Assembly: GCA_902561355.1 (NCBI GenBank) | Contig: CACEPG010000002.1 | Coordinates: 8,607 to 72,606 of the forward strand | DNA length: 64,000 nt | Source: an uncultured Alphaproteobacteria bacterium | GTDB lineage: Bacteria > Pseudomonadota > Alphaproteobacteria > HIMB59 > GCA-002718135 | Reading direction: 5' to 3' | Shown: positions 4,202 through 62,017 of the stretch, one piece after another | Layout: every line of letters starts with the position of its first letter | How positions within the stretch are numbered: position 1 is the first letter of the stretch | The notes under the pieces: generated by a model | The model's database searches: none | The model's input: the letters and a program-made list of their open reading frames with translations, nothing else | Told to the model about the DNA's origin: nothing | Made by a program: the position numbers and the translations under genes

Positions 4202-4202
4202 A

Positions 4203-5492: not shown

Positions 5493-5494
5493 AA

Positions 5495-7887: not shown

Positions 7888-7910
7888 AAAAAAATTGGTA
7901 TATTTATTAG

Positions 7911-38944: not shown

Positions 38945-40309
38945 ATGGAAAATAAATTTCAAAAATGGTTAGAAGAAAACTCAATTACTGAAGTTGAGTG
39001 CTTAGTACCGGATTTAGGAGGCATAGCTCGTGGAAAAATTGTTCCTACAAAAAAGTTTATTAAAGGTTTAGAAAATGATAGTCATAGATTGCCACAATCA
39101 GTATTTATTCAAACAATATCCGGTGGTTATGCTACAGAAGATGAAGAATTACCTATTGATGTCTATAATCCAACAGATATAGATGTAATTTTAAGACCAG
39201 ACTTTAATACCATTAGAAATGTACCTTGGTACGAAGATCCAACAGCACAAGTTATTTGTGATGCTGTAAATCTTAATGGAACTCAAGTAATTAATGCTAG
39301 CAGAACAGTATTAAAAAAAATATTAAAACTTTATGAAGAATTAGGATATCAACCGATAATTTCTCCAGAAGTTGAGTTTTATTTAGTTAAACCTAATTCT
39401 GATGCTGATTATCCTCTAGAAGTACCTACTGGTCAATCAGGTAGAGTAGAAACTGGTAAGCAAGCTTTTGGCATTGATGCAGTTAACGAATTTGATAACT
39501 TATTTGAAGATGTATATAATTTTTGTGAACAACAGAATATTGAAATTGATACTATTAACCATGAGAGTGGATCAGCTCAAATGGAAATTAACTTTCAGCA
39601 TGGGGAACCTCTAGAATTAGCTGATCAAGTATTTTTATTTAAAAGAACATTAAGACAAGCAGCGATAAAACATAAATTATATGCAACTTTCATGGCTAAA
39701 CCTATGGAGAATCAACCAGGAAGTTCATTACATTTACATCAATCATTATTAAATAAAAAAAATAACAAAAATATTTTTTATAGCAAAAAAAATACAATAT
39801 CTAATTTAATGAAAAATTATATTGGTGGACTTCAAGAATTCACACCAAAATTAATGCCAATTCATGCACCTAACATTAATTCTTATAGGCGATTATTTGC
39901 AACTTGGGATGCTCCTAGGAATACTAACTGGGGCATTGGAAATAGATCATGTGGTTTTAGAATTCCATCTAATGAAGAACATAGTATGAGAATAGAAAAT
40001 AGAATTTCTGGATCTGATACTAATCCATACCTTGTAATAGCTGCTAATTTAGCAGCTGGCTATTTAGGTATAAAAAATAAAATTAAGCCAAGTGCCGAGA
40101 CCAAAAAAAGTGTATTTGGTGATCAAAAAAGTTTTTTACCAAAAAATATGGAACAAGCAATTTCATTATTTGAAAAGAATGATCAGATAAATGATGTATT
40201 TAATCAAAAATTTGTCCGTACTATTGCAGCTATTAGAAGAGTTGAAAATCAAGCTTATCTAAAAGTAATAAGTTCTTGGGAAAGAGAATTTTTATTATTG
40301 AATGTTTAA
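38945..40309 (+). CDS. glutamine-synthetase-like glutamate--(poly)amine ligase (PuuA/PauA/GmaS-like)
   Basis: Has GS catalytic-domain strings: NHESGSAQMEINF, GSSLHLHQSL, NSYRRL and RIENRISGSDTNPY. Length is 454 aa. Confidence 0.75.
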   Translation: MENKFQKWLEENSITEVECLVPDLGGIARGKIVPTKKFIKGLENDSHRLPQSVFIQTISGGYATEDEELPIDVYNPTDIDVILRPDFNTIRNVPWYEDPTAQVICDAVNLNGTQVINASRTVLKKILKLYEELGYQPIISPEVEFYLVKPNSDADYPLEVPTGQSGRVETGKQAFGIDAVNEFDNLFEDVYNFCEQQNIEIDTINHESGSAQMEINFQHGEPLELADQVFLFKRTLRQAAIKHKLYATFMAKPMENQPGSSLHLHQSLLNKKNNKNIFYSKKNTISNLMKNYIGGLQEFTPKLMPIHAPNINSYRRLFATWDAPRNTNWGIGNRSCGFRIPSNEEHSMRIENRISGSDTNPYLVIAANLAAGYLGIKNKIKPSAETKKSVFGDQKSFLPKNMEQAISLFEKNDQINDVFNQKFVRTIAAIRRVENQAYLKVISSWEREFLLLNV

Positions 40310-41538
40310 GACAAGCAAATTTCTAGATGTTTCAAATACCACGACTTAAATTTTTCTAACCCTTTCTCCATATTGGAAAGTGGTCCAGGAACATATTTAC
40401 TCGATAATACGCCTTTCTGATTATTCTCAATAATTGTTTTGTCAGCAATGGTAGTCATATCCCACATCCATTTCATTTCTTCTAAATTATAATCTTTACC
40501 CTCCTCTGCATCTTTGTGAACTAACCACATTAATTCAACTTGTGTGTACAATGGTGAAATAGGAATAAAAGTAAACAATGTTGCAAAATCATTGCACATC
40601 AATAAACTGTTAAAAGGAGAAGTGCCTACTGATGTGTAGCCACAATCGTATTCTTTAAATTTACCCATTAATTTTGAAATAGGTTTTCCTGATTTTGTTT
40701 CTGTATATTTGCCTGCTTTAAGAGGTGTTCTTTCAGCACTTCTAGAATAATCATTAAATTCAGTTTCATAATATTCACCTGTAAGATGACCCATCTTGAT
40801 TGTCTTTTTATTCCAATCTTCCAAAACTTTGTTAAATTTATCTGACTCTGGTCCAGTATTGCTTCCTGCGCCATATGCAATAATATATTCACTATCATGA
40901 ACCGAGCAATATTCAGGGTGTGCTGGTTGACAATGATAACATTCATGAAAATTATCAAGTGTAAGTTTCCAATTGCCTTTCGTAGGATAGAATTGTCTGT
41001 GAGCAATTTTTGCTTCACTTAATCCATGAAATTCAATAAATTTTTCAGTAGGAGAGATAAATTCATCAAAACTATTAGGATTTTCTGATAAATTGATAAA
41101 TATTAATCCTTCAAAGATTTTCAAATTACACTTATTCAAACTCCAATCATTTTTTTTAAAATTATCATCCATCATTCTAGCTGATTTTATAGAACCATCT
41201 AAGTTGTAACTCCAAGCATGATATGGGCATACTAATAGTTTTTTATTTCCTTCTTCTTCCAAACAAATATGTGAACCTCTATGACGGCAAACATTGTAAT
41301 GGGCATGAATTAAATCGTCTTTGTCACGTATAATTATAATTGATTCATTGCCTATATTAAAAAGAAAATAATCACCATATTTAGGAATTCTAGAAACATG
41401 CCCTACAAATACCCATTGCTTAGAAAATATATTTTTTATATCCAAATCAAATATATAGTCATCTATATAGAACTCCTGATCTAATGTAAAATTAGGTTTT
41501 TGCTGTTTGATTAATTTTTTTAAATCAACATTATTCAT
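40306..41538 (-). CDS. Rieske [2Fe-2S] non-heme-iron oxygenase, alpha (catalytic) subunit
   Basis: Has the Rieske motif CRHRGSHIC...CPYHAWSY and the mononuclear-iron motif NFHECYHCQPAHPEY. I prefer the ATG at 41538 (MNNVDLKK...) over the track TTG at 41574, which lies inside an intergenic palindrome. Confidence 0.85.
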   Translation of the reverse strand: MNNVDLKKLIKQQKPNFTLDQEFYIDDYIFDLDIKNIFSKQWVFVGHVSRIPKYGDYFLFNIGNESIIIIRDKDDLIHAHYNVCRHRGSHICLEEEGNKKLLVCPYHAWSYNLDGSIKSARMMDDNFKKNDWSLNKCNLKIFEGLIFINLSENPNSFDEFISPTEKFIEFHGLSEAKIAHRQFYPTKGNWKLTLDNFHECYHCQPAHPEYCSVHDSEYIIAYGAGSNTGPESDKFNKVLEDWNKKTIKMGHLTGEYYETEFNDYSRSAERTPLKAGKYTETKSGKPISKLMGKFKEYDCGYTSVGTSPFNSLLMCNDFATLFTFIPISPLYTQVELMWLVHKDAEEGKDYNLEEMKWMWDMTTIADKTIIENNQKGVLSSKYVPGPLSNMEKGLEKFKSWYLKHLEICLS

Positions 41539-41558
41539 AATAATATATATAATATTGA

Positions 41559-41574
41559 TTGAATAAGCATTCAA
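41559..41574 (+). promoter_or_regulatory. operator/promoter cassette TTGAAT-AAGC-ATTCAA (copy 3)
   Basis: A perfect 6-4-6 palindrome in the 55-bp Rieske/DAO divergent spacer. Its first T lies exactly 35 nt before the ATG at 41594. TATAAA follows after a 17-nt spacer. Confidence 0.55.
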
Positions 41575-41593
41575 TGAAATTTATAAATTACTG

Positions 41594-42928
41594 ATGAACA
41601 ATTTATATCATAAAGATATTTATAAGTTTGATGAACCCATAAAAAGTTATTGGGAAACAACAATTAACACAAGTAATAAATATAAAACTTTTGAAAAAAA
41701 TACTAAAACTAATATCTTAGTAATAGGCGCAGGTTATACTGGTATTAGCTGTGCCTTATCTTTAGCTAAAAAATATAATGAAGATGTAGTTTTATTGGAA
41801 GCAGGACATATAGGATGGGGTTCTTCTGCTAGAAATGCCGGTTTTTGTTGTATTCCACCAGCAAAGATGTCTGTTAAAAAAATGATTAATAAACATGGAA
41901 AACAAGAAACAAAAAAATTTTTTAAAAATACTGTTGAGGGCTCAAACTTTACTAAAAACTTAATTGATGAATATAAAATTAATTGTGATTTAACTGGTGA
42001 TTGTAATTATGAAGTTGCACCTCATCCAAGTTATTTTGATTCAATTAAAGAAGAAGCTAGTTTATACAAAAATGAATTTGGAATAGAAACAGAGGTCTTT
42101 GCTAGAGAAGAGTTTAATGAAATAGGTCATATGGGCAATGAACAGTATGGTGCGTTTTCATATAAACCTGGTTTTGCTATTAACCCGTTAAAATTTTTAT
42201 TAGGATTAGCTAAAGAAGCTAAAATTTCTGGGGTAAAAATATTTCAAAAAAGTAAAGTAAGCAAAATAGAAAAAAAATCTGGAAAATTTAATATAATATC
42301 AAACGGACACATTATCACAGCAAATAAAATTGTAATGGCTACAAATGGCTTTTATCAAGATGATCTTTTTCCTAAATTAAATAATAGAATATTACCAGTT
42401 ATATCAAATATTATAATTACGAGACCACTTACAGAAGATGAATTAAAATCACATAATTATGTTACTAATAACCCAGTACTTAATATTAGAAATTTACTTT
42501 TTTATTACAGGTTATTAAAAGATAATCGTTTTTTATTTGGTGCTAGAGGAGATGTAATTGGTAGTGAAAAATCTTCAATAGATAAATCTAAAAAAATGGA
42601 GCAACAAATGAAAAAAGTTTTTCCTAATTGGAGTCATGTTAATATTGATTTTCACTGGAGGGGATTAGTTGCGATGACAGCTAAATTAACACCATCTATA
42701 GGAAAACTTGAAGATGATGAAATTTATTACAGTTTTGGTTATCAAGCTAATGGAGTTAATACAGCCCCATGGTCTGGCAATGAGTTATCAAAATTAATAA
42801 TTTCAAACAGTAAAGTTTTAAATATATCAAAATTTTATCAAGGTTTACCAAAAAAGTTTCCTTTTCCTAAATTAAGATTATTTTATTTAAGATTATATTT
42901 AATGTATTGCTCAATTATAGATAGATAA
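41594..42928 (+). CDS. FAD-dependent oxidoreductase, DAO family
   Basis: Has ILVIGAGYTGISCALSLAK...VVLLEA and is 444 aa. It is the first gene of a tight DAO-aguA-aguB unit. Confidence 0.7.
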   Translation: MNNLYHKDIYKFDEPIKSYWETTINTSNKYKTFEKNTKTNILVIGAGYTGISCALSLAKKYNEDVVLLEAGHIGWGSSARNAGFCCIPPAKMSVKKMINKHGKQETKKFFKNTVEGSNFTKNLIDEYKINCDLTGDCNYEVAPHPSYFDSIKEEASLYKNEFGIETEVFAREEFNEIGHMGNEQYGAFSYKPGFAINPLKFLLGLAKEAKISGVKIFQKSKVSKIEKKSGKFNIISNGHIITANKIVMATNGFYQDDLFPKLNNRILPVISNIIITRPLTEDELKSHNYVTNNPVLNIRNLLFYYRLLKDNRFLFGARGDVIGSEKSSIDKSKKMEQQMKKVFPNWSHVNIDFHWRGLVAMTAKLTPSIGKLEDDEIYYSFGYQANGVNTAPWSGNELSKLIISNSKVLNISKFYQGLPKKFPFPKLRLFYLRLYLMYCSIIDR

Positions 42929-42933
42929 ACAAA

Positions 42934-43980
42934 ATGAGCACGCCTAGAATAAATAATTATCACATGCCTGCTGAATGGTATACTCATGAATGTTGCTGGA
43001 TGCAATGGCCATATGACAATCCAAATCATAATAGTTATGGTGATATACCATCTTGGTCCCATTTTGATTTTGAAAAAGGAAGATTAGCATGGGCTAATGT
43101 TGCAAAAGCAATTTGTGAATTTGAAAAAGTAAAAATGATTGTGCATCCTGATCATTTAATAAGCGCAAAAAATATACTTGATTCAAAGGTAGAAATAATT
43201 GCACATCAAATTGATGATTGTTGGTCAAGAGACAGTGGAGCAATTTTTTTGTTAAATAATGAAAATAAACTTGGAGGGATTGATTGGGAATTTAACGGAT
43301 GGGGCAAATTTAAACCTTATGACTCAGATAATAAAATAGCTAAATTTATGATTGAAAATTCATCAGCAAAATATTTCAAAAATAATATGGTACTTGAGGG
43401 AGGATCTATTCATGTTGATGGGAATGGAACTTTAATAACAACAGAACAATGTTTACTTAATAAAAATAGAAATCCTAAGCTTACAAAAGAAAAAATTGAA
43501 GATAATCTAAAAGAATATTTTAATATAAGTAAAATTATTTGGCTTAAAAATGGAACTGATGAAGGAACAGATGGTCATGTAGACAATATTGCATGCTTTG
43601 CTAACCCGGAAACTATTTTAGCTTTAGGTTGTAGTGACAAACAAGATCCTTTTTATGAAAAAATAAATGAAAATTTAGAAATTTTAAAAACATCGACTAA
43701 TAGCAAAGGTAAAAGATTAAAAATTATTGAAATTGAAATGTCTAAAAAAAGACTTATACCTAATGATGAAGAGCCAAGTTCTTATATTAATTTTTATATT
43801 GCTAACCAGGGTATAGTTATGCCAAGATTTGATGATGAAAAAGCTGACGTAAATGCTCAAACTATTATACAATCTACCTTTCCTGATAGAAAAATTATTG
43901 CTATTGATGGTAAAGATATTTCTCTTGGAGGAGGAAATGTACATTGTATAACACAACAACAACCTCTAAGTGTGAAATAG
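42934..43980 (+). CDS. aguA: agmatine deiminase
   Basis: The N-terminus is MPAEWYTHECCWMQWP and the C-terminal catalytic-Cys context is GGGNVHCITQQQP. Length is 348 aa. Confidence 0.85.
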   Translation: MSTPRINNYHMPAEWYTHECCWMQWPYDNPNHNSYGDIPSWSHFDFEKGRLAWANVAKAICEFEKVKMIVHPDHLISAKNILDSKVEIIAHQIDDCWSRDSGAIFLLNNENKLGGIDWEFNGWGKFKPYDSDNKIAKFMIENSSAKYFKNNMVLEGGSIHVDGNGTLITTEQCLLNKNRNPKLTKEKIEDNLKEYFNISKIIWLKNGTDEGTDGHVDNIACFANPETILALGCSDKQDPFYEKINENLEILKTSTNSKGKRLKIIEIEMSKKRLIPNDEEPSSYINFYIANQGIVMPRFDDEKADVNAQTIIQSTFPDRKIIAIDGKDISLGGGNVHCITQQQPLSVK

Positions 43981-43996
43981 AAAAGAAAGAATAGAT

Positions 43997-44866
43997 ATGA
44001 AAGTTAAAGTTGCAGCAACCCAAATGACATGCAGTTGGACTATTGATGAAAATATTAATAAAGCTAAAGATTTAATTAATAAGAGTGCTGCAGAAGGTGC
44101 TAATATAATCCTTCTACAAGAACTATTTCAAACTCCATATTTTTGTATTCAATATGATGAGGAAATTTTTAAATTAGCTGCAACATTTGAAAACAATAAA
44201 GTACTTGGAATGATGAGTGATTTGGCTAAAAAACTTAATGTTGTTTTGCCAATTAGTTTTTTTGAGAGAGATAATAATGCATATTTTAATTCAATTGCTG
44301 TTATTGATGCTGATGGAGCAATATTAGGAAAATATCGAAAATCTCATATCCCTGATGGTCCTGGATATTTAGAAAAATACTATTTTAATCCGGGTAATAC
44401 CGGCTTTAAAGTTTGGGAAACAAAATTTGGGAAAATAGGTATTGGTATATGTTGGGACCAGTGGTTTCCTGAAGCTGCAAGAATTATGGCTTTAAAAGGA
44501 GCAGAAATATTATTTTACCCAACTGCAATAGGGGACGAATTAATGAGTGAGTATGATAGTTCTGGAGCTTGGCAAAGAGTCATGCAAGGTCATGCAGCTG
44601 CAAATATAATTCCTGTTGTTGCTTCAAATAGAGTTGGTTCAGAATCAGTTAAAGGGCAAACAAATGGTTTTTATGGTAGATCTTTTATTTGTGACAGATC
44701 TGGTAAAATATTAGAAGAGGCATCAAAGGATAAAGAAGAAATAATTGTTGCAGAAATTAATACTGAAGAAGATCATTTATTTAGAAGAAATTGGGGACTT
44801 TTTAGAGATCGAAGAACTGATTTGTATGAAGAAATTTTAACGCTAGATGGAAAAATTAAAGATTAA
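43997..44866 (+). CDS. aguB: N-carbamoylputrescine amidase (CN-hydrolase family)
   Basis: The Glu-Lys-Cys triad contexts are ILLQELF, YRKSHIP and GIGICWDQWFPE. It is 289 aa and lies directly after aguA. Confidence 0.85.
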   Translation: MKVKVAATQMTCSWTIDENINKAKDLINKSAAEGANIILLQELFQTPYFCIQYDEEIFKLAATFENNKVLGMMSDLAKKLNVVLPISFFERDNNAYFNSIAVIDADGAILGKYRKSHIPDGPGYLEKYYFNPGNTGFKVWETKFGKIGIGICWDQWFPEAARIMALKGAEILFYPTAIGDELMSEYDSSGAWQRVMQGHAAANIIPVVASNRVGSESVKGQTNGFYGRSFICDRSGKILEEASKDKEEIIVAEINTEEDHLFRRNWGLFRDRRTDLYEEILTLDGKIKD

Positions 44867-46241
44867 GATACCACTTATATTCAATATCAGAAATTTCAGA
44901 ACGAAAAGATTCGATTTCTTTTCTTTTTAAATCAGCATACATTGTCACATATTCTTTTGAATAATAATCAATACAAAATTTTGAGTCTTCAAATAATTGA
45001 ATAGCTTTTTCAATAGATTTGGGCATTTCAGGATCAGGGTCAGTACAAGCATTATCAATTCGAAAATTTGTAGGAGATATTTTGTTAATAAGACCATAAT
45101 GAATTCCAGATAAAATAGCAGAAAGAACTAAATAAGAATTAGCTTCAGCTCCTGCTACCCTATGCTCAATCCTTTTAGATTTTTCATCGCTTCTTGGAAT
45201 TCTAAAAGCAACTGATCTATTATTAGGACCCCACGAATTGTTTACAGGAACAAATTGATCAGGCTCAAAACGCCTATAAGAATTTACATTAGAAGCAAAT
45301 ATTAAAAAATTATCATATAACGTTTGTTGTAAGCCACCTATTGCATAATGTAATTGTTCACTACCCTCTTCTTTAGCTCCAGAAAAAATATTATGATTTT
45401 TCTCATTAAACAAACTTATATGAACATGCATGCCGCTACCAGTTTGCTCAATAAATGGCTTTGAAATGAAGCTTGCTTCATAATCATGCTTAATTGCAGT
45501 TTCTTTTATAACTCTTCTTAGTAACGCTGAATCATCTGCAGCTTTAAGAATATCATTGGTATGATTTAAATTTATTTCAAATTGTCCAGGAGCAAATTCA
45601 GATGAAGCAGTTGATGCAGGAATATTTTGTATTTTACAAAATTTATTAACATCTTCTAAAAAATCATAGAATTCATCTAATTCTCGCATTCCATAAACTT
45701 GAGTTCCTTCACTTTGTTTATTAGTTTCGTTTGATATTGCTGGTTCTGGTTTTTCAGAAATATTTTTTCTTTTTTTAAAAAGATAAAATTCTAATTCAAA
45801 AGCAACTTTAAATTGTAAATTTAAATCTTCAATTCTATCTAAAACTCTAGCTAGTACATTTCTTGGATCTATTATAGAGCTGTAACGTGAGTCATCTTGA
45901 ATTGTAATTAAAACTTGCCCCAAAGAATCTTTATGCCATGGCATTTTTTTTAAAGTGCCAGCCACAGGAAAATAAGTTGCATCTGGATCTCCATCAGTAA
46001 AACCTCTCCCTGCGGCATCAGGACAATAACCAGTTACATCTAGTAAAAATGTTGAATAACAAAATTGAATTCCTGACTTAAATAGTTTTTCAGCGTCGTT
46101 AATTGGCAATCTTTTACCTCTAATAACACCTGATAAGTCACTTAAAATAGCATCTATATATTTAATTTCAGGATTTTTTTCTTTAAAAGAATTAAATTCA
46201 TCAGCTGTAGCAATTAAAACTTTGCTATTTTTAAAAGTCAT
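44856..46241 (-). CDS. glutamine-synthetase-like glutamate--amine ligase (second paralogue)
   Basis: Has SSEFAPGQFEINL, GSGMHVHISL, NSYRRF and RIEHRVAGAEANSY. Length is 461 aa. Confidence 0.75.
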   Translation of the reverse strand: MTFKNSKVLIATADEFNSFKEKNPEIKYIDAILSDLSGVIRGKRLPINDAEKLFKSGIQFCYSTFLLDVTGYCPDAAGRGFTDGDPDATYFPVAGTLKKMPWHKDSLGQVLITIQDDSRYSSIIDPRNVLARVLDRIEDLNLQFKVAFELEFYLFKKRKNISEKPEPAISNETNKQSEGTQVYGMRELDEFYDFLEDVNKFCKIQNIPASTASSEFAPGQFEINLNHTNDILKAADDSALLRRVIKETAIKHDYEASFISKPFIEQTGSGMHVHISLFNEKNHNIFSGAKEEGSEQLHYAIGGLQQTLYDNFLIFASNVNSYRRFEPDQFVPVNNSWGPNNRSVAFRIPRSDEKSKRIEHRVAGAEANSYLVLSAILSGIHYGLINKISPTNFRIDNACTDPDPEMPKSIEKAIQLFEDSKFCIDYYSKEYVTMYADLKRKEIESFRSEISDIEYKWYLNL

Positions 46242-46264: not shown

Positions 46265-46280
46265 TTGAATGTCTATTTAA
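46265..46280 (+). promoter_or_regulatory. degenerate copy of the TTGAAT-N4-ATTCAA cassette (TTGAAT-GTCT-ATTTAA, copy 4)
   Basis: It has one mismatch to the palindrome and lies in the 58-bp GS-like/amidase divergent spacer. Its first T is again exactly 35 nt before the ATG at 46300. The -10-like element is weak. Confidence 0.3.
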
Positions 46281-46299: not shown

Positions 46300-47775
46300 A
46301 TGGATCTACATTATATATCAGCTGTTGAAGCAATTAAAAAATTTAAAGATAAGTCATTATCTCCTGTAGAACTAGTAAATTCTGTAATTGAAAGATCGCA
46401 AAAGATTAATCCTAAAATAAATGCTCATAACTTTACTTTTTATGAAAAAGCAATTGAATATGCAAAAAAATCAGAGCAAAAATATTTTACAAACTCCAAA
46501 ACACTCCCTCTAGAAGGTATACCTGTTGCTATCAAAGATGAAGAGGATATCGAAGGTCAGCCAAATACTAATGGTTCTTTGATATTAAAAGATCGCATAG
46601 CAAAAAAAACTATGGTTGATGTTGAAAGAATTATTAATTCTGGAGCAGTTATTCATTGCAGAACAACTACGCCTGAATTTTCCACTACCTCATTCACTCA
46701 TTCGAAATTGTGGGGCGTTACAAGAAATCCATGGAATTTGGAATATACACCTGGAGGTTCATCAGGAGGTTCAGGTGCATCTCTAGCTGCTGGATGTTCA
46801 ACTCTCGCAACTGGTTCTGATATTGGAGGTTCAATAAGAATACCTGCTTCTGCCTGTGGTCTAGTTGGATTTAAACCTCCTCATGGTCGAAATCCTCAGG
46901 AAGCTCCTTTTAATCATGATCAATATTGTGTAGTTGGTCCAATGGCAAGAACAGTAAAAGATTGTGCTCTAATGCAAAATGTAATGTCAGGACCACATCC
47001 TAAAGATATTACTAGTTTAAAACCCAAATTAAATATCCCTAATAAATTTGATAATATTAAAAATTGGAAAATAGCTTATTCAATGAATCTTGGTTTTTTT
47101 GAAATTGATAAAGAGGTAGAAAAAAATACACTCGATATAATTAATAAATTAAAAGAATTAGGTGCAAAAGTTGAAGAAGTTAAAATAAACTGGAACAAAA
47201 AAGAACTTGAGGATACTTGTTATAATTATTATGCCCATCTTTTTGCTAATTTTATTGCAGAATTAATACCTGAGCATGAAGAGGAGCTGACAGATTATGC
47301 AAGAGATGTTGGCTTGACTGCTAGAATTATTAACAAAGCATTAGTTGAAAGAAAAAAAATTAATCATCCTAGTATGGGTGTTGATTTAGGCATGACATTA
47401 TATGAATGCAATAAAATAGCTGGTAAAATGTATGAAGAATTTGGACCTATAATACACAAATACGATGCATTTATTTGTCCTACATTATCAATACCTGCCG
47501 TTAAGGCAGATATTAATCTGTTTAAAGATAAAATAGTAATTAATGGAAAAGAAATAAATTCACCCGATCTTGGATGGACTTTGTGTTATCCTTTTAATAT
47601 ACTCTGTCGATTACCAGTATTATCAATCCCTTCAGGAATAGCTAGTAATGGCGTGCCTACTGGGGTACAAATAGTTGGAAAGCCTTATGATGATATACCC
47701 GTTTTTCAAGCAGGCTATCAATTAGAACAGATAGAACCATGGTTTCAAAATAATAAATTAAAACCTAATTTATAA
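46300..47775 (+). CDS. amidase-signature (AS) family amidase
   Basis: Has GGSSGGSGASLAAG, the catalytic Lys context PVAIKDEEDI, and GSDIGGSIRIPA. Length is 491 aa. Confidence 0.85.
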   Translation: MDLHYISAVEAIKKFKDKSLSPVELVNSVIERSQKINPKINAHNFTFYEKAIEYAKKSEQKYFTNSKTLPLEGIPVAIKDEEDIEGQPNTNGSLILKDRIAKKTMVDVERIINSGAVIHCRTTTPEFSTTSFTHSKLWGVTRNPWNLEYTPGGSSGGSGASLAAGCSTLATGSDIGGSIRIPASACGLVGFKPPHGRNPQEAPFNHDQYCVVGPMARTVKDCALMQNVMSGPHPKDITSLKPKLNIPNKFDNIKNWKIAYSMNLGFFEIDKEVEKNTLDIINKLKELGAKVEEVKINWNKKELEDTCYNYYAHLFANFIAELIPEHEEELTDYARDVGLTARIINKALVERKKINHPSMGVDLGMTLYECNKIAGKMYEEFGPIIHKYDAFICPTLSIPAVKADINLFKDKIVINGKEINSPDLGWTLCYPFNILCRLPVLSIPSGIASNGVPTGVQIVGKPYDDIPVFQAGYQLEQIEPWFQNNKLKPNL

Positions 47776-47823
47776 AAATTGCTATTTTTTATTGAAATTT
47801 TCTCAAATTATTGTTCATGTAGC

Positions 47824-47843
47824 AATTAATTAATTAATTAATT
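47824..47843. repeat. (AATT)x5 tetranucleotide tract
   Basis: aattaattaattaattaatt lies immediately upstream of a G6 Shine-Dalgarno-like run (47850-47855) and the ATG at 47860. Confidence 0.9.
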
Positions 47844-47859
47844 TTTATTGGGGGGTAAA

Positions 47860-48948
47860 ATGCCTAAATACTATGAAACTAAAAATTATTTAGTAAAAAC
47901 TTTAGGTGTGGCAATATTGATGGTTTTTATAACCGGATTATTTACTACATCAAAGGTTTTTGCTGATGAGCCTGGAAGTGTTTTTCTATGGGGTGGATAT
48001 GATGATGATGGACTATTTGGATCTTATGTAGAAGAACATGGATCACCAGAATACGCAACATTTGGTGATGCTGAAGAAGGATTACAAAAATTAAAAGCTG
48101 GTTTTGAAGTGGATTTAGCTTGGCCATGCCAAGGTGAAATAGCTCGATGGGTAAGAGCTGGAGTGCTTGAACCATTAGACACTTCTCGTATAGATAATTG
48201 GGATGATATGTTCCCTGAAGTCAGAGACCTGCCAAGCGGTATTGTTGATGGTCAAAACTATTTTGCACCTATCGATTGGGGTGATACAACTTTATTTTAC
48301 ATGGCTGATCGAATTCCATGGATGAATGCTGACAATGAAAGTTTTGATCTAATGGAAGATCCAAGAGTAAAAGGTAAAGTTGGTATATTAGACTCAGCTG
48401 CTGACTCATTATTTTTAATGATGCATCATCTTGGAATTGATATCAGAGAAAAAGATCAATTAACTAAAGCTGCTATTGATAAAGGTATCAATAAGTTTCG
48501 TGAAATGAGAGATAACGGACAAATACGTGCATTCTTCGGAGACACTTCCTCAATGGTAGAGGCGCTAGGTAACGAAGAAATAGATGTAGCTCTTGGTTGG
48601 AACGAAATTGCATGGAATGCGGGAGCAAAAATGATGCAACCTGCTAATGGAACAATGACGTGGGCTTGTGGGCTTGCCATTGTTAAAGGTGCAGATCTTG
48701 ATAAAGCATATGCAATGATTAATGGAGCTACGAGTGCTGAAACTTCTGCTTACTTACTAAGTGAGTGGGGTTATGGTCATTCAAACATGAAAGGCTTTAG
48801 CACAATTACTGCTGATGAATTAGCTGAACGTGGAGTAGCATCTAATCCTGCAGAACACCTTTCAAATGGAATGTTCTCTGTGATGCCTTCAGATGAAGTA
48901 ACTGATTACATGGAAGCTCAATGGGCTGAAATGGTTGCTGGCGGTTGA
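47860..48948 (+). CDS. ABC-transporter periplasmic substrate-binding protein, PotD/PotF (polyamine) family
   Basis: Has a signal peptide (...LFTTSKVFA/DEPGS) and a roughly 340-aa mature two-lobe SBP-like sequence. It is convergent with PotA/B/C-like genes. I prefer the ATG at 47860, preceded by GGGGGG, over the track TTG at 47848. Confidence 0.8.
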   Translation: MPKYYETKNYLVKTLGVAILMVFITGLFTTSKVFADEPGSVFLWGGYDDDGLFGSYVEEHGSPEYATFGDAEEGLQKLKAGFEVDLAWPCQGEIARWVRAGVLEPLDTSRIDNWDDMFPEVRDLPSGIVDGQNYFAPIDWGDTTLFYMADRIPWMNADNESFDLMEDPRVKGKVGILDSAADSLFLMMHHLGIDIREKDQLTKAAIDKGINKFREMRDNGQIRAFFGDTSSMVEALGNEEIDVALGWNEIAWNAGAKMMQPANGTMTWACGLAIVKGADLDKAYAMINGATSAETSAYLLSEWGYGHSNMKGFSTITADELAERGVASNPAEHLSNGMFSVMPSDEVTDYMEAQWAEMVAGG

Positions 48949-48970: not shown

Positions 48971-49007
48971 AATAGCCTGTTCTCTTTTTGAGGGCGGGCT
49001 ATTTTTT
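48971..49007 (+). terminator. rho-independent terminator of the SBP gene
   Basis: The plus-strand RNA forms a 14-bp stem (48971-48984 with 48990-49003, three G-U pairs) and a 5-nt loop. The stem's last pair (A48971-T49003) begins the T-run 49003-49007. The structure contains the stop codon of the convergent ATPase gene. Confidence 0.75.
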
Positions 49008-50081
49008 ATTCAATAAAGAAATATCTTCTAAACTAATACTTATAAAGCACTCGTTATTTTCAAAAGATTGGTTGTCAAAATGTTGTGAAGAAACAGTGAT
49101 AGTCTTATCTATTCCTTTAACTTCAACGTAAAATCTAGTCATTTCTCCTAAATATGAAGTCTGTCTAATCTTAGCATCAAGACAAATATCCCAATCGGAT
49201 TTCACTTTTGAAATCATCATAGATTCTGGGCGAACACTACAAACAACATCAGAAGAATTTGCTGCGATATTTAAATTATTTTTAATTTTAAATTCTCCCA
49301 ATTCTTCGATTGAAACATTGGTGAATCCTCCATCACTTGATTTAGTCTCAGCTTTAAGAAAATTTGTTTCACCTATAAAATCACTTACAAATATATTTTT
49401 TGGATTCTTATAAAGTTCGTTGGGTGCTGATAATTGTTGAATTTTTCCATCATTCATAACTGCAACTCTGTCTGACATACTTATGGCTTCTTGTTGATCA
49501 TGAGTGACAAATACAAAAGTAATTCCAATATTTTTTTGAAGCGTTCTTAATTCTAATTGCATTTCATCTCTTAGTTTTTTATCTAAAGCACCTAGAGGTT
49601 CATCTAATAATAGAACTTTTGGTTGCCTTACTAAAGCTCTAGCAAGAGCAACACGCTGTCTTTGACCACCAGATAGTTGATTGCTAAACCTTTCTTCATA
49701 GCCCTCAAGCTTTACTAATTTAAGAACATCTTTAACTCTATTACCTATCTCATCATGACTTAAACCAAGTTTTCTTAGTCCAAATTTAATATTTTTTTCA
49801 ACATTAAGATGAGGAAAAATTGCATAGTTTTGAAAAACCATATTTGTAGGTCTTTTGTCTGGAGGTAATGCTGTAATATCTATCCCATCAATTAATAGAT
49901 TTCCAGAAGTTGGATATTCAAATCCTGCCAATAACCTCAACAATGTTGTCTTACCACATCCGGAAGGTCCTAAAAGTGAAAAAAATTCACCTTCTTTAAT
50001 CTCAAATGAAACATCATCAACTGCTTTTACATCTGCAAAGTGTTTTGAAATATTATTGATTTGTATAAATGAATTATTCAT
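48999..50081 (-). CDS. ABC-transporter ATP-binding protein, PotA-like
   Basis: Has Walker A GPSGCGKTT, the signature LSGGQRQRVALARAL and Walker B LLLDEP. A C-terminal TOBE-like regulatory domain follows. Confidence 0.9.
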   Translation of the reverse strand: MNNSFIQINNISKHFADVKAVDDVSFEIKEGEFFSLLGPSGCGKTTLLRLLAGFEYPTSGNLLIDGIDITALPPDKRPTNMVFQNYAIFPHLNVEKNIKFGLRKLGLSHDEIGNRVKDVLKLVKLEGYEERFSNQLSGGQRQRVALARALVRQPKVLLLDEPLGALDKKLRDEMQLELRTLQKNIGITFVFVTHDQQEAISMSDRVAVMNDGKIQQLSAPNELYKNPKNIFVSDFIGETNFLKAETKSSDGGFTNVSIEELGEFKIKNNLNIAANSSDVVCSVRPESMMISKVKSDWDICLDAKIRQTSYLGEMTRFYVEVKGIDKTITVSSQHFDNQSFENNECFISISLEDISLLNKK

Positions 50082-50087
50082 AGTTTT

Positions 50088-50897
50088 TTATAATTTCACA
50101 GCTATATCTTTCTTTGCTTTACCTTGTCCAACATTTCTTAACCAGAATGCTAACAAAACAATAAAAGTAGTAAAAACAATAATTACTGCTCCTAATGCCA
50201 GTACATGAGGTAACTTCTGAACAAATCTCATTTGACCCCACATATACATAGGTAACGTTGCATCACTTCCAGTTAAAAAAAATGCAAGAATAAATTCATC
50301 AAAAGAAATTATGAAACTTAGAAGAAGAGCGGCGACTATACCAGGCAAATATAATGGAAATGACACTCTAAAAAATGTTCCCCACGCATTTTCTCCTAAA
50401 TCCCTAGAGGCCTCTTCAAGTGAAAAATCAAAACCTTCAATACGGGCTATAAGTATTAACATTGCAAAAGGTGTACAAAATAAAGTGTGGCCAATTGTTA
50501 CTGGGACAAGTCCCAATTTAAATCCAAGATTGATCCAAATTATCAGTATAGCTACAGCCAAGATAATTTCAGGTATCAAAAATGGCATCATTATACCTCC
50601 ATAAGAAATCTTTTCCCCTCTAAATTTATATCGAGCAAATGCCTTTGCTGCAAATAGTGCAATTGTTGTACTAATGACACTCGCAACAACTCCTACTTTT
50701 ATACTTGCCCATAGAGCCTTATGTAGATTTCTTTTTGACCACATCTCTTCATAGTGCTCCGTTGTAAATCCAGCGAGAGGGAATGACATATAATTTGCAT
50801 CGTTAAAACTAAATATAGGTAAGAATAAAACTGGCACATAAAGAAATACAAAATAAAGAAGGGTATAAATCAGTAATGTATTATTTTTTTCGTTCAT
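50088..50897 (-). CDS. ABC-transporter permease, PotC-like
   Basis: Six transmembrane helices with the EAA loop EEASRDLGENAWGTFFRVSFPLYLPG. Confidence 0.85.
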   Translation of the reverse strand: MNEKNNTLLIYTLLYFVFLYVPVLFLPIFSFNDANYMSFPLAGFTTEHYEEMWSKRNLHKALWASIKVGVVASVISTTIALFAAKAFARYKFRGEKISYGGIMMPFLIPEIILAVAILIIWINLGFKLGLVPVTIGHTLFCTPFAMLILIARIEGFDFSLEEASRDLGENAWGTFFRVSFPLYLPGIVAALLLSFIISFDEFILAFFLTGSDATLPMYMWGQMRFVQKLPHVLALGAVIIVFTTFIVLLAFWLRNVGQGKAKKDIAVKL

Positions 50898-50899
50898 TT

Positions 50900-51784
50900 T
50901 TAAGTTAACCTTTGTGTAAGTCTTTTTGTTACATTCGACACAATTATTGTTATGAGTATAACAGTTGTTAACATAATTGTAGCTGAAGCTGCGCCAAGAG
51001 GAATATTATTTATTTTTCCAAAGTAAGCCTGGATCATATTCGAAAGCATACGACCATCAGTTCCTCCAAGTAAGGCTGGAGTGACATAATCACCTACTGT
51101 AGGAATGAATATGATTAATATCGCTCCTATTACACCAGGTAAAGATAATGGAAATGTAATTTTCCAAAAAACTTCAAATCGAGAGAGTCCAAGATCTCTT
51201 CCTGCTTCAATAAACGAAAAGTCAATTTTTTCTAACGAAACATATAAAGGTAGTAATGCAAATGCTGCCCATGCGTGAGTAAGAGTAATAACTACTGCGG
51301 TTTCTGAATACATAAGAAATGTAAGAGGTTCGCTGAGAATTCCAGCGTTGATCAATGAAGAGTTTATAACTCCTTTTGTTCCAAGAATAATCTTCCAAGA
51401 AAATACTCTTAATAAATAAGATGTCCAAAAAGGCAAAGTGAGCAAAACAAGCCACAACATTTTGTTTTTTTTAACATAAAAAGCGATGTAATAACAAACT
51501 GGGTATGCTGTGATCAGTGTAATTAAAGTTACAAGAAATGATATTTTAATAGACTTTATGAGAAGTGTGACCAGCAAATTTTTTTGAAAGAAATCAATAT
51601 ATCTTTGAAAAGTAAAAGTATAGTCTATCTCCATCATGTTAACTTGAGTAAACATACTAAAGCTCAACATTAGTGCCATTGGTACGACCATAGCCAAAAT
51701 AATTAAAATTAAAGCTGGTGATAATAAAGTATAAGCTTTAACATTATCATTTTTAGCATAAATTTTTCTCCAAAAACCTATCAT
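50900..51784 (-). CDS. ABC-transporter permease, PotB-like
   Basis: Six transmembrane helices with the EAA loop IEAGRDLGLSRFEVFWKITFPLSLPG. Confidence 0.85.
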   Translation of the reverse strand: MIGFWRKIYAKNDNVKAYTLLSPALILIILAMVVPMALMLSFSMFTQVNMMEIDYTFTFQRYIDFFQKNLLVTLLIKSIKISFLVTLITLITAYPVCYYIAFYVKKNKMLWLVLLTLPFWTSYLLRVFSWKIILGTKGVINSSLINAGILSEPLTFLMYSETAVVITLTHAWAAFALLPLYVSLEKIDFSFIEAGRDLGLSRFEVFWKITFPLSLPGVIGAILIIFIPTVGDYVTPALLGGTDGRMLSNMIQAYFGKINNIPLGAASATIMLTTVILITIIVSNVTKRLTQRLT

Positions 51785-51804
51785 ATTTTTTTTCAGCTCC
51801 TTAT

Positions 51805-52983
51805 TTATTCAATTAAAGATTTCAAACCTCGTTTATAAAGAGAATTTGCAATAATAATTCTATGAATTTCACTTGTTCCTTCCCAAATACGGTCCACTCT
51901 TAATTCTCTATAATAACGCTCTGCAACATTCTCTCTCATATATCCTCTTCCACCAAAAATCTGCACTGCACGATCAGCAATTCTATTAGCCATTTCAGAT
52001 GCAAGTAATTTAATCATAGAACATTTTCCATGTAAAATTTTTACATCTTGTTTTGCATCATGAGCTTTGCAAACCTCATAAAGCATTAATCGAGTTGAAG
52101 CTAATTCATTTACACTATCTGCTAACATGAATTGTATAGCTTGATAGTTTGAAATTTTATCACCAAAAGATTCTCTTTCTTTTGCAAAAATTGTTGCTTC
52201 ATCAATTAATCTTTGAGCAGCCCCGCAGCATCTTGCAGCTATACCTAGTCTTTCATGCCTAAACCAGGAATGCGTATAATCCATGCCAATACCTTCATTA
52301 CCAATTATTTTTTTTTCTGAAATTGAAACATTATCAAACCTATAAATAGAATGATGATGTGCATATGTATGACTAAACTTAGGACTATCTATTAACTCAA
52401 TACCTTTCTCATCCTTATCAATTATAAATAGTGAATGCTTGCCCTCATTTGAACCAGATTTAATTTTTGCCTGTAAAAAGAAAAAATCAGCTAGATTTGC
52501 ACTTGTAACATACCATTTTTCGCCATTAATAATATATTGATCTCCCTTTTTTTCTGCTGTTGTTTCAATTGAGCCTTCCACATCTGAACCTGCGCCTTTT
52601 TCTGTAATCGCATAACATTCTTTTTTAGTACCGTTTAAAAGTGGTTTAAAATAATTTTCTTTTTGATAATCAGTAAAATTATTTTCCATCCAATCCTGAG
52701 CTTCTGAAAAACACCAGCATAATGCATTTGTAACTCGGCCTAATTGTTCCCAAACTATCATCTGTTCAAACATATTTAATCCCAAGCCTCCGCTTTCTTT
52801 TGAAATACCCATACCCGGCAAACCTAGTGAAATAGCAATCTCCCGATGTTTTTTTTCAATTTCCTTGGGTAACTCACCTTCATTTTTTTCTGCATGCACC
52901 TCCCAAGGAATTAATTCATCATTAACAAATTTTTTTATCTTTAATTGCCATTCCAAAGCTTTTGGTGTCATGCCGCTATACAT
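51805..52983 (-). CDS. acyl-CoA dehydrogenase family protein
   Basis: Has YAITEKGAGSDV and the C-terminal string YYRELRVDRIWEGTSEIHRIIIA. It is 392 aa and lies 2 nt downstream of the TetR gene. Confidence 0.85.
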   Translation of the reverse strand: MYSGMTPKALEWQLKIKKFVNDELIPWEVHAEKNEGELPKEIEKKHREIAISLGLPGMGISKESGGLGLNMFEQMIVWEQLGRVTNALCWCFSEAQDWMENNFTDYQKENYFKPLLNGTKKECYAITEKGAGSDVEGSIETTAEKKGDQYIINGEKWYVTSANLADFFFLQAKIKSGSNEGKHSLFIIDKDEKGIELIDSPKFSHTYAHHHSIYRFDNVSISEKKIIGNEGIGMDYTHSWFRHERLGIAARCCGAAQRLIDEATIFAKERESFGDKISNYQAIQFMLADSVNELASTRLMLYEVCKAHDAKQDVKILHGKCSMIKLLASEMANRIADRAVQIFGGRGYMRENVAERYYRELRVDRIWEGTSEIHRIIIANSLYKRGLKSLIE

Positions 52984-52985
52984 TG

Positions 52986-53624
52986 TTAAAACATTCCCTT
53001 AAATTGTTTGGGGAAATTAGATTTAATAAACTCAAAACATATTTTCTTTGCTTGTATCCTGTTAAAAGTATCAGGATCTTCAAGTTGATCCAACCATAAT
53101 CCCATAATCAAAGCTTGAAATCCTCTAGAAATATTTTTTTTAGATAATTTCACTTTTTCTTTTTTTATAAGTTCATCAAATATATTTTCAGTTAAAGATT
53201 GGTAATACATATCTCGTTCTTTACAAATTTGATGATAAGCAGGTTTATATTTAATTTCACTAAAAAAAGTAAACCACACTGAAATTTTTTCTCTAGTGCA
53301 AATTTTTTTACTAAAATCATTTTCTACAATTCCAATGATTTTTTTTCTTGGATCATTACCTTTTTTTGCAATACTTCTTTGAAATGAATCTAGATACTCG
53401 TTAGAAATATATTTTAATGTTTCTATTAATAAAAGTTCCTTACTTTTAAAATGAAAATTTACTATACCTTGGGAAAGACCTGCTCCCTGTGATACATCTT
53501 GCATAGTTAATTCATTTATTCCTTTTTTTGATAAATTTTTAATTGTTGAAGAAATTAATTTTAAATTACTATTTTTCTTATTTTCTGATCTAAGATTTCT
53601 TTGTTTCATATTTAATAAATTCAT
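52986..53624 (-). CDS. TetR-family transcriptional regulator (BetI-like ligand domain)
   Basis: The N-terminal HTH is ELTMQDVSQGAGLSQGIVNFHFKSKELLLIETL. The C-terminal strings ISVWFTFFSE...KP.Y and FQALIMGLWLDQL resemble E. coli BetI as I recall it (KAWLAFWASS...QP.LY, ALIDGLWLRAAL). Confidence 0.8.
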   Translation of the reverse strand: MNLLNMKQRNLRSENKKNSNLKLISSTIKNLSKKGINELTMQDVSQGAGLSQGIVNFHFKSKELLLIETLKYISNEYLDSFQRSIAKKGNDPRKKIIGIVENDFSKKICTREKISVWFTFFSEIKYKPAYHQICKERDMYYQSLTENIFDELIKKEKVKLSKKNISRGFQALIMGLWLDQLEDPDTFNRIQAKKICFEFIKSNFPKQFKGMF

Positions 53625-53665
53625 TATAGTTTTTCATAAAAAGCTTGATTTTACAAGAAATTTGG

Positions 53666-53681
53666 TTGAATGCTCATTCAA
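53666..53681 (+). promoter_or_regulatory. operator/promoter cassette TTGAAT-GCTC-ATTCAA (copy 1)
   Basis: A perfect 6-4-6 palindrome in the 76-bp TetR/flavoprotein-operon divergent spacer. Its first T lies exactly 35 nt before the ATG at 53701. Confidence 0.6.
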
Positions 53682-53700
53682 AGAAATATAAGAAAATACA

Positions 53701-55329
53701 ATGAACAAAACTAAATATGATGTTGCTATAATTGGTGGTGGTCATAATGGATTAACCACAGCTTGTTATTTGGCTAAGGCGGGTCTCAAAGTCATTGTTG
53801 TGGAACGACATGAATATGTTGGAGGCGCAGCTGTTAGCAGAGAATTGCATCCAGGTTGGACTTATTCTAATTGCTCATATGTTTGCAGCTTATTAAGACC
53901 TGAGATATTTAGAGATTTAGAATTATCAAAACATGGGCTTCAAATTATACCTTATGAAGGTAGTGCGAGTATGCTTAATGATGGTAGATTTTATGCACAT
54001 TATCAAGATCATGATTTAACTTACAGATCTATCGCTCAATTTTCAAAAAAAGATGCTGAAGCCTATGATAGGTTTGGCAAAGATGTAATGAGGCAATGCA
54101 AAATTATCAAACCTCTTTTAAAAATGACTCCTCCTGACCCTACTTCTTTTAAACCAAAAGATATTATGGGTCTTTTTGAATTTGCAAAATACTTTGCAGC
54201 TAAAGATGAGCTTGGTGGTTTAGGTGAAAAAGAAATTTACGACACCATAAGATTTTGGACAATGAGCGTAAGAGATTATTTAGAAGAATATTTTGAATCA
54301 GATATAGTAAAAGTACATTTAGCTGGATCTGCAATAATAGGTACAGCGCTTGGGCCTTATTCCCCTGGTTCAGCTTATGTATTATTACATCATTACATGG
54401 GAGAAGTAGATGGGACTGTTGGAGCATGGGGGTATTCCAGAGGAGGAATGGGCTCGATTACAAAAGCTATGGCGTCATCTTTAAAATCAAACAATGGTGA
54501 AATAAAAGCAGGTTCACCAGTAAGTCAGATTCTTATCAAAAATAACAAAAGTTATGGACTTGTTCTTGAGAATGGTGATGAAATTTATGCAGATAAAATA
54601 GTTTCTAACCTTGATGTAAAAAGAACTTTTTTAAAAGTTGTAGAAGAAAAAGAATTACCTAGTGATTTTTATAAAGCTGTTAAAAATTTTAAAATTAGAG
54701 GCTCATCAGGAAAATTAAATATTGCTCTTGATGATCTTCCTATTTGGAAGAGTATTCCAGTTGGTGATCCTGCTGGCACTGGTGATCTGCATATAACGCA
54801 AAACATAGAAGAGATGGAAGGAGCTTACGATGATTGGAAGGATGGTAAGTGGTCACAATTTCCTTATGTTGATATGTGCATTCCAAGCATCAATGATCCA
54901 ACTATGGCACCACAAGGAAAACATTATATGTCTGTATTTATTCAATATGTACCCTACAATTTAGCTAATGGAGGTTGGACTGAGGAGAAACGTCTTGAAT
55001 TTGGTAAACATGTAATGAATAGAATTGGCAATTACTCCACAAACTTTAATGATATTATCAATCATGCAGAAATTAGAACTCCTAAAGAAATAGAAGCTGA
55101 GGTTGGTTTAACTGAAGGCAATATATTCCAAGGCGAACTAACCATGGACCAATTAATGTTTAATCGTCCAGTACCTGGTTATGCTCAATATAAGACACCG
55201 ATCAAAAATCTATATATGTGTGGATCAAGCACGCATCCTGGCGGAGGTGTTATGGGTGCACCTGGAGTTAATGCAGCAAGAGAAATATTAAAAGATTTAA
55301 AGATGAAAATATCAACACATTACATATGA
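53701..55329 (+). CDS. NAD(P)/FAD-dependent oxidoreductase, CrtI/amine-oxidase superfamily, PYROXD2-like
   Basis: Has YDVAIIGGGHNGLTTACYLAKAGLKVIVVERHEYVGGAA and CSYVCSLLRPEIFRDLELSKHGL, the latter close to the human PYROXD2 string as I recall it. The C-terminal string is LYMCGSSTHPGGGVMGAPG. Length is 542 aa. Confidence 0.8.
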   Translation: MNKTKYDVAIIGGGHNGLTTACYLAKAGLKVIVVERHEYVGGAAVSRELHPGWTYSNCSYVCSLLRPEIFRDLELSKHGLQIIPYEGSASMLNDGRFYAHYQDHDLTYRSIAQFSKKDAEAYDRFGKDVMRQCKIIKPLLKMTPPDPTSFKPKDIMGLFEFAKYFAAKDELGGLGEKEIYDTIRFWTMSVRDYLEEYFESDIVKVHLAGSAIIGTALGPYSPGSAYVLLHHYMGEVDGTVGAWGYSRGGMGSITKAMASSLKSNNGEIKAGSPVSQILIKNNKSYGLVLENGDEIYADKIVSNLDVKRTFLKVVEEKELPSDFYKAVKNFKIRGSSGKLNIALDDLPIWKSIPVGDPAGTGDLHITQNIEEMEGAYDDWKDGKWSQFPYVDMCIPSINDPTMAPQGKHYMSVFIQYVPYNLANGGWTEEKRLEFGKHVMNRIGNYSTNFNDIINHAEIRTPKEIEAEVGLTEGNIFQGELTMDQLMFNRPVPGYAQYKTPIKNLYMCGSSTHPGGGVMGAPGVNAAREILKDLKMKISTHYI

Positions 55330-57994: not shown

Positions 57995-58000
57995 AGAATA

Positions 58001-59152: not shown

Positions 59153-59155
59153 TCT

Positions 59156-61192: not shown

Positions 61193-61200
61193 TTTAATTT

Positions 61201-61995: not shown

Positions 61996-62017
61996 TTGAA
62001 TGCTCATTCAGTGAATG
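61996..62017 (+). promoter_or_regulatory. operator/promoter cassette TTGAAT-GCTC-ATTCAG overlapping a second palindrome CATTCA-G-TGAATG (copy 2)
   Basis: The 15-nt core TTGAATGCTCATTCA is identical to copy 1. It lies in the 53-bp spacer between the CaiD-like gene and the aminotransferase. Its first T is exactly 35 nt before the ATG at 62031, and TACAGT follows after a 17-nt spacer. Confidence 0.6.

Follow-up and report, generated by a model that had tools for sequence, protein, structure and literature searches.

The palindrome TTGAAT-AAGC-ATTCAA (TTGAATAAGCATTCAA) at positions 41559–41574 of the window, the 64,000-nucleotide stretch of DNA analyzed here, is a real, non-random and conserved element, and we consider it fairly likely to be an operator for a BetI-like TetR-family repressor whose gene lies 12 kb away (52986–53624). 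This element, designated site C, occupies the spacer between the divergent genes for a Rieske oxygenase and a DAO-family flavoprotein (DAO2). That the candidate operator is common to the Rieske/DAO2 pair and to the flavoprotein/GcvT/CoA operon is well supported by the comparative sequence data, and in the lineage to which the window belongs the predicted regulon extends to aguA-aguB as well. From the sequence we infer that the repressor binds and represses, that the promoters have a leaderless geometry and what kind of ligand is involved, and we propose the following mechanism. A repressor dimer would recognize TTGAAT(G)-NN-(C)ATTCAA. The half-sites of site C would double as −35 hexamers for a pair of overlapping, divergent promoters of the sigma-70 type, and a single bound dimer would shut off the Rieske gene and DAO2 together. 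The same repressor would act on its own divergent promoter (site A, 53666) and on the promoter of an aminotransferase gene (site B, 61996). Release would require a small-molecule ligand, likely a methylated or quaternary amine in view of the BetI-type ligand domain of the regulator and the demethylase-type target genes.

Gene families in the window were assigned with Pfam and NCBIfam. The Rieske gene (40306–41538, minus strand, start ATG 41538) is monocistronic and encodes a quaternary-amine demethylase homologue of the GbcA/Stc2 type. The best NCBIfam match of its product is GbcA (334 bits vs a cut-off of 670), and the nearest solved structures are 3N0Q, 3VCA/3VCP and 4QUP (demethylase), of which we take 3VCA/3VCP to be the proline-betaine (stachydrine) demethylase Stc2; an exact look-up returned no protein identical to that of the window. 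On the plus strand, DAO2 (41594–42928), an agmatine deiminase-like gene (aguA, 42934–43980) and an N-carbamoylputrescine amidase gene (aguB, 43997–44866) are separated by gaps of only 5 and 16 nt and are therefore likely to form one operon (41594–44866). Beyond them lie a glutamine-synthetase-like (GS-like) gene (44856–46241, minus strand) and genes for an amidase and a solute-binding protein (46300–48948, plus strand). Genes for an ABC ATPase, two ABC permeases and an acyl-CoA dehydrogenase (48999–52983, minus strand) are tightly packed behind the TetR gene in the same direction. A six-gene operon on the plus strand (53701–61977) encodes two CrtI/amine-oxidase-like flavoproteins, a GcvT-like demethylase, an acyl-CoA dehydrogenase, an ADP-forming acyl-CoA ligase and an enoyl-CoA hydratase. 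Behind site B is a class-III aminotransferase gene (62031–63407, plus strand), and an MFS transporter gene, which comes after the aminotransferase gene in loci L090 and L125, probably starts near 63417 in the window. The G+C content of this cluster region (36–64 kb) is 27–32%, and homologues carry the label Pelagibacteraceae, so that the genome is of the SAR11 type. Positions 1–8000 of the window have a G+C content of 19–24%, vs 27–35% elsewhere in the window.

Site C is a perfect 6+4+6 inverted repeat whose arms reach 7 bp (ATTGAAT/ATTCAAT, 41558–41575), and it fits the short dyad (~15–30 bp) of a TetR-family operator. It is centered in the 55-bp divergent spacer between the Rieske ATG at 41538 (minus strand) and the DAO ATG at 41594, 20 nt from the former and 19 nt from the latter. 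The first-pass annotation had placed the palindrome in this spacer, and its coordinates and both ATGs were borne out. It had also dismissed a TTG start at 41574 for the Rieske gene as an artefact of the palindrome, and here we agree: this TTG, which opens a 422-aa ORF, is the first codon of the reverse-complement arm of the palindrome. The Rieske homologues are almost all 410 aa, which sets the start at ATG 41538, and the few 422-aa calls among them (P0048, P0062) reuse the palindrome TTG.

How unusual is such a palindrome? Site C had been described as the third perfect copy, but the window holds only two perfect copies of TTGAAT-N4-ATTCAA, at 41559 and 53666, the element at 61996 (TTGAATGCTCATTCAG) having one mismatch. 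By chance, 0.12 perfect copies are expected per window, and two or more copies occurred in 2 of 100 shuffles. When up to two mismatches were allowed, there was no enrichment in the window (20 matches vs 29.6 expected), and looser searches, with 2 or 3 mismatches permitted, were dropped because they added noise and showed no enrichment. A refined motif, TTGAAYGNNYATTCAR, matches exactly sites A, B and C in the window, where 0.03 matches are expected, and never has more than one match in a shuffle, although it was built after the comparative data had been seen and the enrichment figure is therefore partly circular. On the minus strand site C reads TTGAATGCTTATTCAA, so that its central bases nearly equal the GCTC of sites A and B. 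All three sites lie in short intergenic spacers, 19–20 nt upstream of start codons. An origin of the palindromes as a repeat or mobile element was ruled out by their number and setting, as there are only three copies, each of them in a promoter, and no flanks are shared beyond ~30 bp.

Orthologous loci were collected from the contigs of the Rieske homologues P0010, P0071, P0105 and P0117 and from a metagenome scan with the GS-like protein. The palindrome is present in the spacer of every locus in which the Rieske gene lies inside the syntenic cluster (Rieske proteins 68–87% identical), and it is absent at one 66%-identical Rieske homologue in a non-syntenic, Bacteroidota-looking context. Both half-sites of site C are intact in 10 of the 11 spacer haplotypes, the remaining one having a T to C change. 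The sequence is TTGAATGCTTATTCAA in L081-84, L085-88, L103, L104/L113, L110/L114, L112 and L131, and TTGAATGGATATTCAA in L102 and L122; in L098-100, with a Rieske protein of 68% identity and a PAD-family gene as the divergent partner, it is TTGAACGCACATTCAA. Across the 11 haplotypes no other block of the Rieske/DAO2 spacer is as well conserved as site C, and the remainder of the spacer is variable. Alignment A1 shows little or no variation in the block TAAATTTCATTGAA.G..YATTCAAT.AATA.TATA, and next to both start codons the sequence and its length vary. The footprinting check proposed in the first-pass annotation therefore came out in its favor, in that sites A, B and C are all conserved at orthologous promoters in related Pelagibacteraceae contigs.

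The position of aguA-aguB is less constant. The two genes directly follow DAO2 only in the window and in loci of the L081 and L103 types. DAO2 is cut off from the true aguA-aguB pair by an ABC transporter on the opposite strand in L130/L131 and by an opposite-strand GcvT gene in L085-88, and the motif is absent from the aguA spacer of L130/L131. The earlier proposal that the Rieske gene and the DAO-aguA-aguB unit belong to the regulon of the flavoprotein operon is partly supported, by the common palindrome and by the occurrence of the TetR gene on the same contigs (L110, L131), and has to be narrowed in that the link to aguA-aguB is limited to certain lineages. One further locus, L001, the only close relative (87%) from a genome scan with aguB, was uninformative on site C because DAO is fused in frame to alaS. 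In this single-cell genome (AG-414-E06), alaS continues at ~5880–5940 into DAO, of which the first ~55 codons are missing; the resulting ORF is 1263 aa long, and the fusion is probably an amplification or assembly chimera.

The candidate regulator (52986–53624, minus strand) has the Pfam domains TetR_N and TetR_C_6, and its C-terminal domain is of the BetI type (PF13977). Its best NCBIfam hits are BetI models, with both scores under the cut-off (TIGR03384, 106.3 bits vs 201.3; NF001978, 101.3 bits vs 118), so that it does not qualify as a BetI equivalog. The helix-turn-helix sequence TMxDVSxGAGLSQGIVNFHFKSKELLLIETL is invariant in six aligned TetR sequences, which represent the lineages that hold the gene. 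Most homologues are 207 aa long, vs 212 aa for the annotated window protein (ATG 53624), and the true start is probably ATG 53609, which would give 207 aa. The annotated ATG 53624 falls inside a minus-strand TATAAT (window 53609–53637). The genome that carries site C thus also carries a helix-turn-helix gene of the TetR family whose own promoter region contains a copy of the palindrome, and annotation with Pfam and NCBIfam found no other regulator gene in the cluster. This copy, site A (TTGAATGCTCATTCAA, 53666–53681), lies in the TetR/flavoprotein divergent spacer, in the classic layout of the TetR family, 19 nt from the flavoprotein ATG and 41 nt upstream of the annotated TetR ATG, and we presume it to be an auto-operator.

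Site A and the TetR gene are kept or lost together. Its half-sites are perfect in 14 of 14 loci that have the TetR gene (TetR proteins 73–100% identical), with GCTC or GGTC at the center, and it is broken in all three loci without the gene. In these three (L106, L107 and L124) the TetR gene has been deleted, and a remnant of its 5′ end is left between the acyl-CoA dehydrogenase and flavoprotein genes; the deletion junctions are at 4676–4792 in L106, at the same position in L107 and at 8983–9099 in L124 (window equivalent 52986–53700). Both ...CAAGAAATTTGGTTGAATG and ATATAAGAA survive in the TetR-less spacer. There, ~8 substitutions, including a change from ATTCAA to ATTATA, affect the right half of site A and the adjoining bases, with the flanking TTGAATG and ATATAAGAA untouched. 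Such decay of site A with the loss of TetR is as predicted for a repressor/operator pair.

We considered whether the palindromes might be bound by another transcription factor, from a gene elsewhere in the genome, with the neighboring TetR protein recognizing some other sequence. This idea draws on the persistence of site C and of a weak fourth site, site D, where the TetR gene is missing, and on the failure of the operator to match the canonical betI box. However, it sits poorly with the pattern at site A (intact in 14 of 14 loci with TetR, broken in 3 of 3 without) and with the location of site A in the promoter of the TetR gene itself. In addition, the cluster has no second regulator gene, and SAR11 genomes have very few regulators (PMC8437039). 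A different, unlinked regulator appears disfavored by the presence and absence of site A and TetR, and we regard it as improbable.

For site C itself, the co-variation of operator and regulator seen at site A is mixed. The TetR gene, site A and site C are found together on one contig in L110 (12.6 kb) and L131 (21 kb of a 79-kb contig). Loci L085-88 have a perfect site C, and their ends overlap the TetR-less L124 at 95% and the TetR-less L107 at 92% nucleotide identity. The 249-bp spacer upstream of aguA looks identical in L085-88 and in the TetR-less contigs over the part read, and the nearest TetR-containing relative of L085-88, L129, is 89% identical. These data suggest that site C is probably maintained in a lineage without this TetR, a link that rests on overlapping sequence of 92–95% identity. 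A search through aguA homologues did not find site C and a TetR-less junction on the same contig, the contigs breaking ~250 bp upstream of aguA. The contigs of one lineage break repeatedly around aguA, DUF6356 and aguB (L107 13528–13771; L124 1–249; left ends of L085-88), which points to a locally heterogeneous population or to a repeat that assembly cannot resolve. Such persistence would be expected if both halves also served as promoter elements. Because site C apparently persists without TetR, and because its halves lie where −35 boxes would be, its conservation alone is no proof that a repressor binds it.

The position of the half-sites deserves attention in this respect. The distance from the start of TTGAAT to the ATG is 35 nt for DAO2 and 36 nt for the Rieske gene. 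Read by eye, TTGAAT is followed towards DAO2 by 17 bp, TATAAA, 6 nt and the ATG, and towards the Rieske gene by 17 bp, TATATA (TATAAT in relatives), 7 nt and the ATG, and these −10-like hexamers sit within the conserved block of the Rieske/DAO2 spacer. The spacing to the two ATGs would be that of leaderless or near-leaderless transcripts, and the half-sites of site C, again as read by eye, may be the −35 boxes of two overlapping divergent promoters. A consensus sigma-70 scan did not call the promoters at site C, its hits being at chance level in this AT-rich DNA. The sigma-70 and terminator scans were both set aside, as their hits were at or below shuffle expectation.

From this geometry it could be argued that site C is a pair of −35 hexamers of divergent promoters in a spacer of 47–60 bp, without meaningful action of TetR, and that its likeness to sites A and B comes from the common −35 hexamer. 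Such a reading would fit the −35/−10 spacing to both ATGs (TATAAA, TATATA or TATAAT 17 bp downstream), the extension of the conserved block ~11 bp past the palindrome on each side over the −10-like elements, and the seemingly intact site C in the lineage nearest to the TetR-less contigs. It would also fit the half retained in the TetR-less site A, which is a TTGAAT that points towards the flavoprotein gene. On the other hand, a TetR dimer that binds site A would also bind the identical half-sites and spacing of site C wherever the two co-occur, as they do in the window and in L110 and L131; a central G and GCTY are common to all three sites; and the sigma-70 scan, with hits at chance level, made no calls at these promoters. 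Moreover, site B lies outside any divergent spacer, so that promoter boxes alone fail to explain its symmetry. We therefore see promoter function without TetR as a possible but rather unlikely account of site C. The case for an operator is argued from its half-sites and spacing, which are identical to those of site A in any genome that holds both, and from which the repressor would be expected to bind it.

Could the palindrome instead function in RNA, as a hairpin in 5′ leaders with, for example, a translational or stabilizing role? Its distance to the start codon is constant, at 19–20 nt, at four genes, and two of the four leaders fold better than shuffled sequences (site C plus strand, z −2.45; site B, z −2.26). 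However, the folds are weak (−3.4 to −9.8 kcal/mol), the other two leaders fold no better than shuffles, and the minimum-energy fold at site A pairs bases other than the palindrome arms. Nor does the variation look like that of a paired RNA: it consists of loop-equivalent bases and single uncompensated changes without covariation, and the L098 variant TTGAAC...ATTCAA lacks one pair, with no second change to restore it. There was also no match to an Rfam family. Given the weak hairpins and the negative Rfam result, we rejected RNA structure as the main explanation, and a hairpin function of the palindrome seems to us very improbable.

As a predicted operator, the palindrome would act at promoters other than those of site C. 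Site B (TTGAATGCTCATTCAG, 61996–62011, plus strand), with its one mismatch in the terminal ATTCAG, is 19 nt upstream of the ATG of the class-III aminotransferase gene. The variant ending in G and both halves are kept in the window, L090 and L125, and the neighboring spacer sequence varies. Site B overlaps a second small palindrome, CATTCAgTGAATG (window 62005–62017), and the block ATTCAGYGAATGATA at this site is kept in L090 and L125; the second palindrome might provide a third half-site or a position for a second dimer, an arrangement that recalls the overlapping betI2 boxes. Site D (TTGAATGTCTATTTAA, 46265–46280, plus strand) lies in the divergent spacer of the GS-like and amidase genes, 19 nt from the amidase ATG. 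Many lineages retain its left half, TTGAATGTCTAT, with the right half degraded to ATTTAT or ATGTAT, and no such site was found in spacers of the L081 and L110-112 types. With conservation limited to the left half, its standing as a fourth operator stays uncertain. Site D is also kept in the TetR-less contig L124. Together, sites A, B and C head 17 genes, namely the Rieske gene (1), DAO2-aguA-aguB (3), the TetR operon (5), the flavoprotein operon (6) and the aminotransferase and MFS genes (2). The first-pass estimate of at least 20 genes was thus too high, 20 being reached only when the weak, half-conserved site at 46265 is counted.

How does this system compare with known repressors? BetI1 of Ruegeria pomeroyi protects ATTGACG*CGTCAAT, a perfect palindrome lying over a −35 box, and BetI2 binds palindromes in a divergent spacer (PMC12442346); in Escherichia coli, BetI binds the overlapping betI-betT promoter region (PMC5934670). 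The resemblance to the window is considerable. First, the window regulator likewise combines TetR_N with a BetI-type C-terminal domain (PF13977), and BetI models are its best NCBIfam hits. Second, a putative operator of the window is a palindrome in the divergent spacer of the regulator itself. Third, as with BetI1 and BetI2, more copies are found at catabolic promoters of the same theme, where they overlap presumed −35 boxes (PMC12442346). Fourth, the outer arms ATTGA...TCAAT are common to the window operator and the betI box. In contrast to BetI, however, the window regulator scores below both cut-offs (106 vs 201 and 101 vs 118 bits), and its predicted operator is 18 bp long (ATTGAATG-NN-CATTCAAT) rather than 14 bp, with arms 8 bp apart rather than 4. 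None of betA, betB, betC and betT is among the genes of the cluster, and the predicted targets are instead a Rieske demethylase homologue, DAO and agmatine deiminase genes, a Pot-type ABC transporter and the GcvT/acyl-CoA operon. The sequence comparison thus suggests a system that would work like a BetI-type TetR operator but outside the BetI regulon proper.

The arrangement also recalls TetR/tetA, with a repressor gene divergent from its target, a palindromic operator in the short spacer between overlapping promoters and an expectation of autoregulation. It differs from TetR/tetA in being a predicted multi-promoter regulon, with at least three sites over 20 kb, in having one palindrome per spacer rather than tandem operators, and in that the pair of genes that would be regulated at site C does not include the repressor gene.

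For the metabolic side of the cluster, the demethylation of DMSP offers a parallel. The Dmd pathway proceeds through DmdA, DmdB, DmdC and DmdD, that is, a GcvT-family demethylase, an acyl-CoA ligase, an acyl-CoA dehydrogenase and an enoyl-CoA hydratase. The region 56792–61977 of the window contains, in this order, genes for a GcvT-like demethylase, an acyl-CoA dehydrogenase, a CoA ligase and an enoyl-CoA hydratase, corresponding to DmdA, C, B and D. Unlike DmdA, however, the GcvT-like protein scores 166 bits vs the DmdA cut-off of 410; the window ligase is of the ADP-forming ATP-grasp type, whereas that of the Dmd pathway is AMP-forming; and the window operon has two extra CrtI-like flavoproteins.

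Considering these features together, we tentatively raise the possibility of a ligand-inducible SAR11 regulon of 17–20 genes, controlled by a BetI-like repressor through three, perhaps four, palindromes and devoted to the uptake and degradation of an uncharacterized methylated or quaternary nitrogen compound, in which some lineages would have deleted the repressor and would run the pathway constitutively. Under this tentative reading, candidate substrates would be a methylated polyamine, a guanidino compound or an osmolyte of the beta-alanine/butyro-betaine type. The enzymes would comprise a Stc2/GbcA-like Rieske N-demethylase and a THF-dependent GcvT-like demethylase, together with a Dmd-like CoA ligase, dehydrogenase and hydratase and with agmatine deiminase and N-carbamoylputrescine amidase.

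The interest of such a system would come from the organism and the substrate, and less from the mechanism, a TetR-family operator overlapping promoters, which is conventional. No other heterotroph in the ocean is as abundant as SAR11. Transcriptional control of its genes for carbon and nitrogen oxidation is usually described as almost absent (PMC8437039). A literature search for a BetI or TetR regulon in SAR11 found nothing relevant, most of the matches to "betI" being names of freshwater clades. The switch proposed here would be of an ordinary kind but previously undescribed in a SAR11-type bacterium. If the proposal is correct, a transporter, two kinds of demethylase, CoA-dependent steps and agmatine-processing enzymes would be under one conserved repressor/operator system; the substrate would be important enough to warrant regulation, and the ligand of the repressor would be a handle for finding it. 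The lineages with natural TetR deletions would provide a ready-made comparison of regulated and constitutive states in metatranscriptomes.

Finally, the immediate neighbors of DAO2 and of the Rieske gene differ among lineages. In most lineages a second PAD-family gene, whose product is ~342 aa and ~35% identical to that of aguA, directly follows DAO2 (L085 2965–3993, L103 6327–7304, L131 4800–5828); the window has lost this gene, so that DAO2 abuts the true agmatine deiminase-like gene. The window has no obvious reductase gene adjoining the Rieske gene. In some lineages (L081 11260–13296; L082-84) the Rieske gene is followed by one for a 678-aa Oxidored_FMN/Pyr_redox_2 protein, which is absent from the window and which could be the electron-transfer partner of the Rieske oxygenase.
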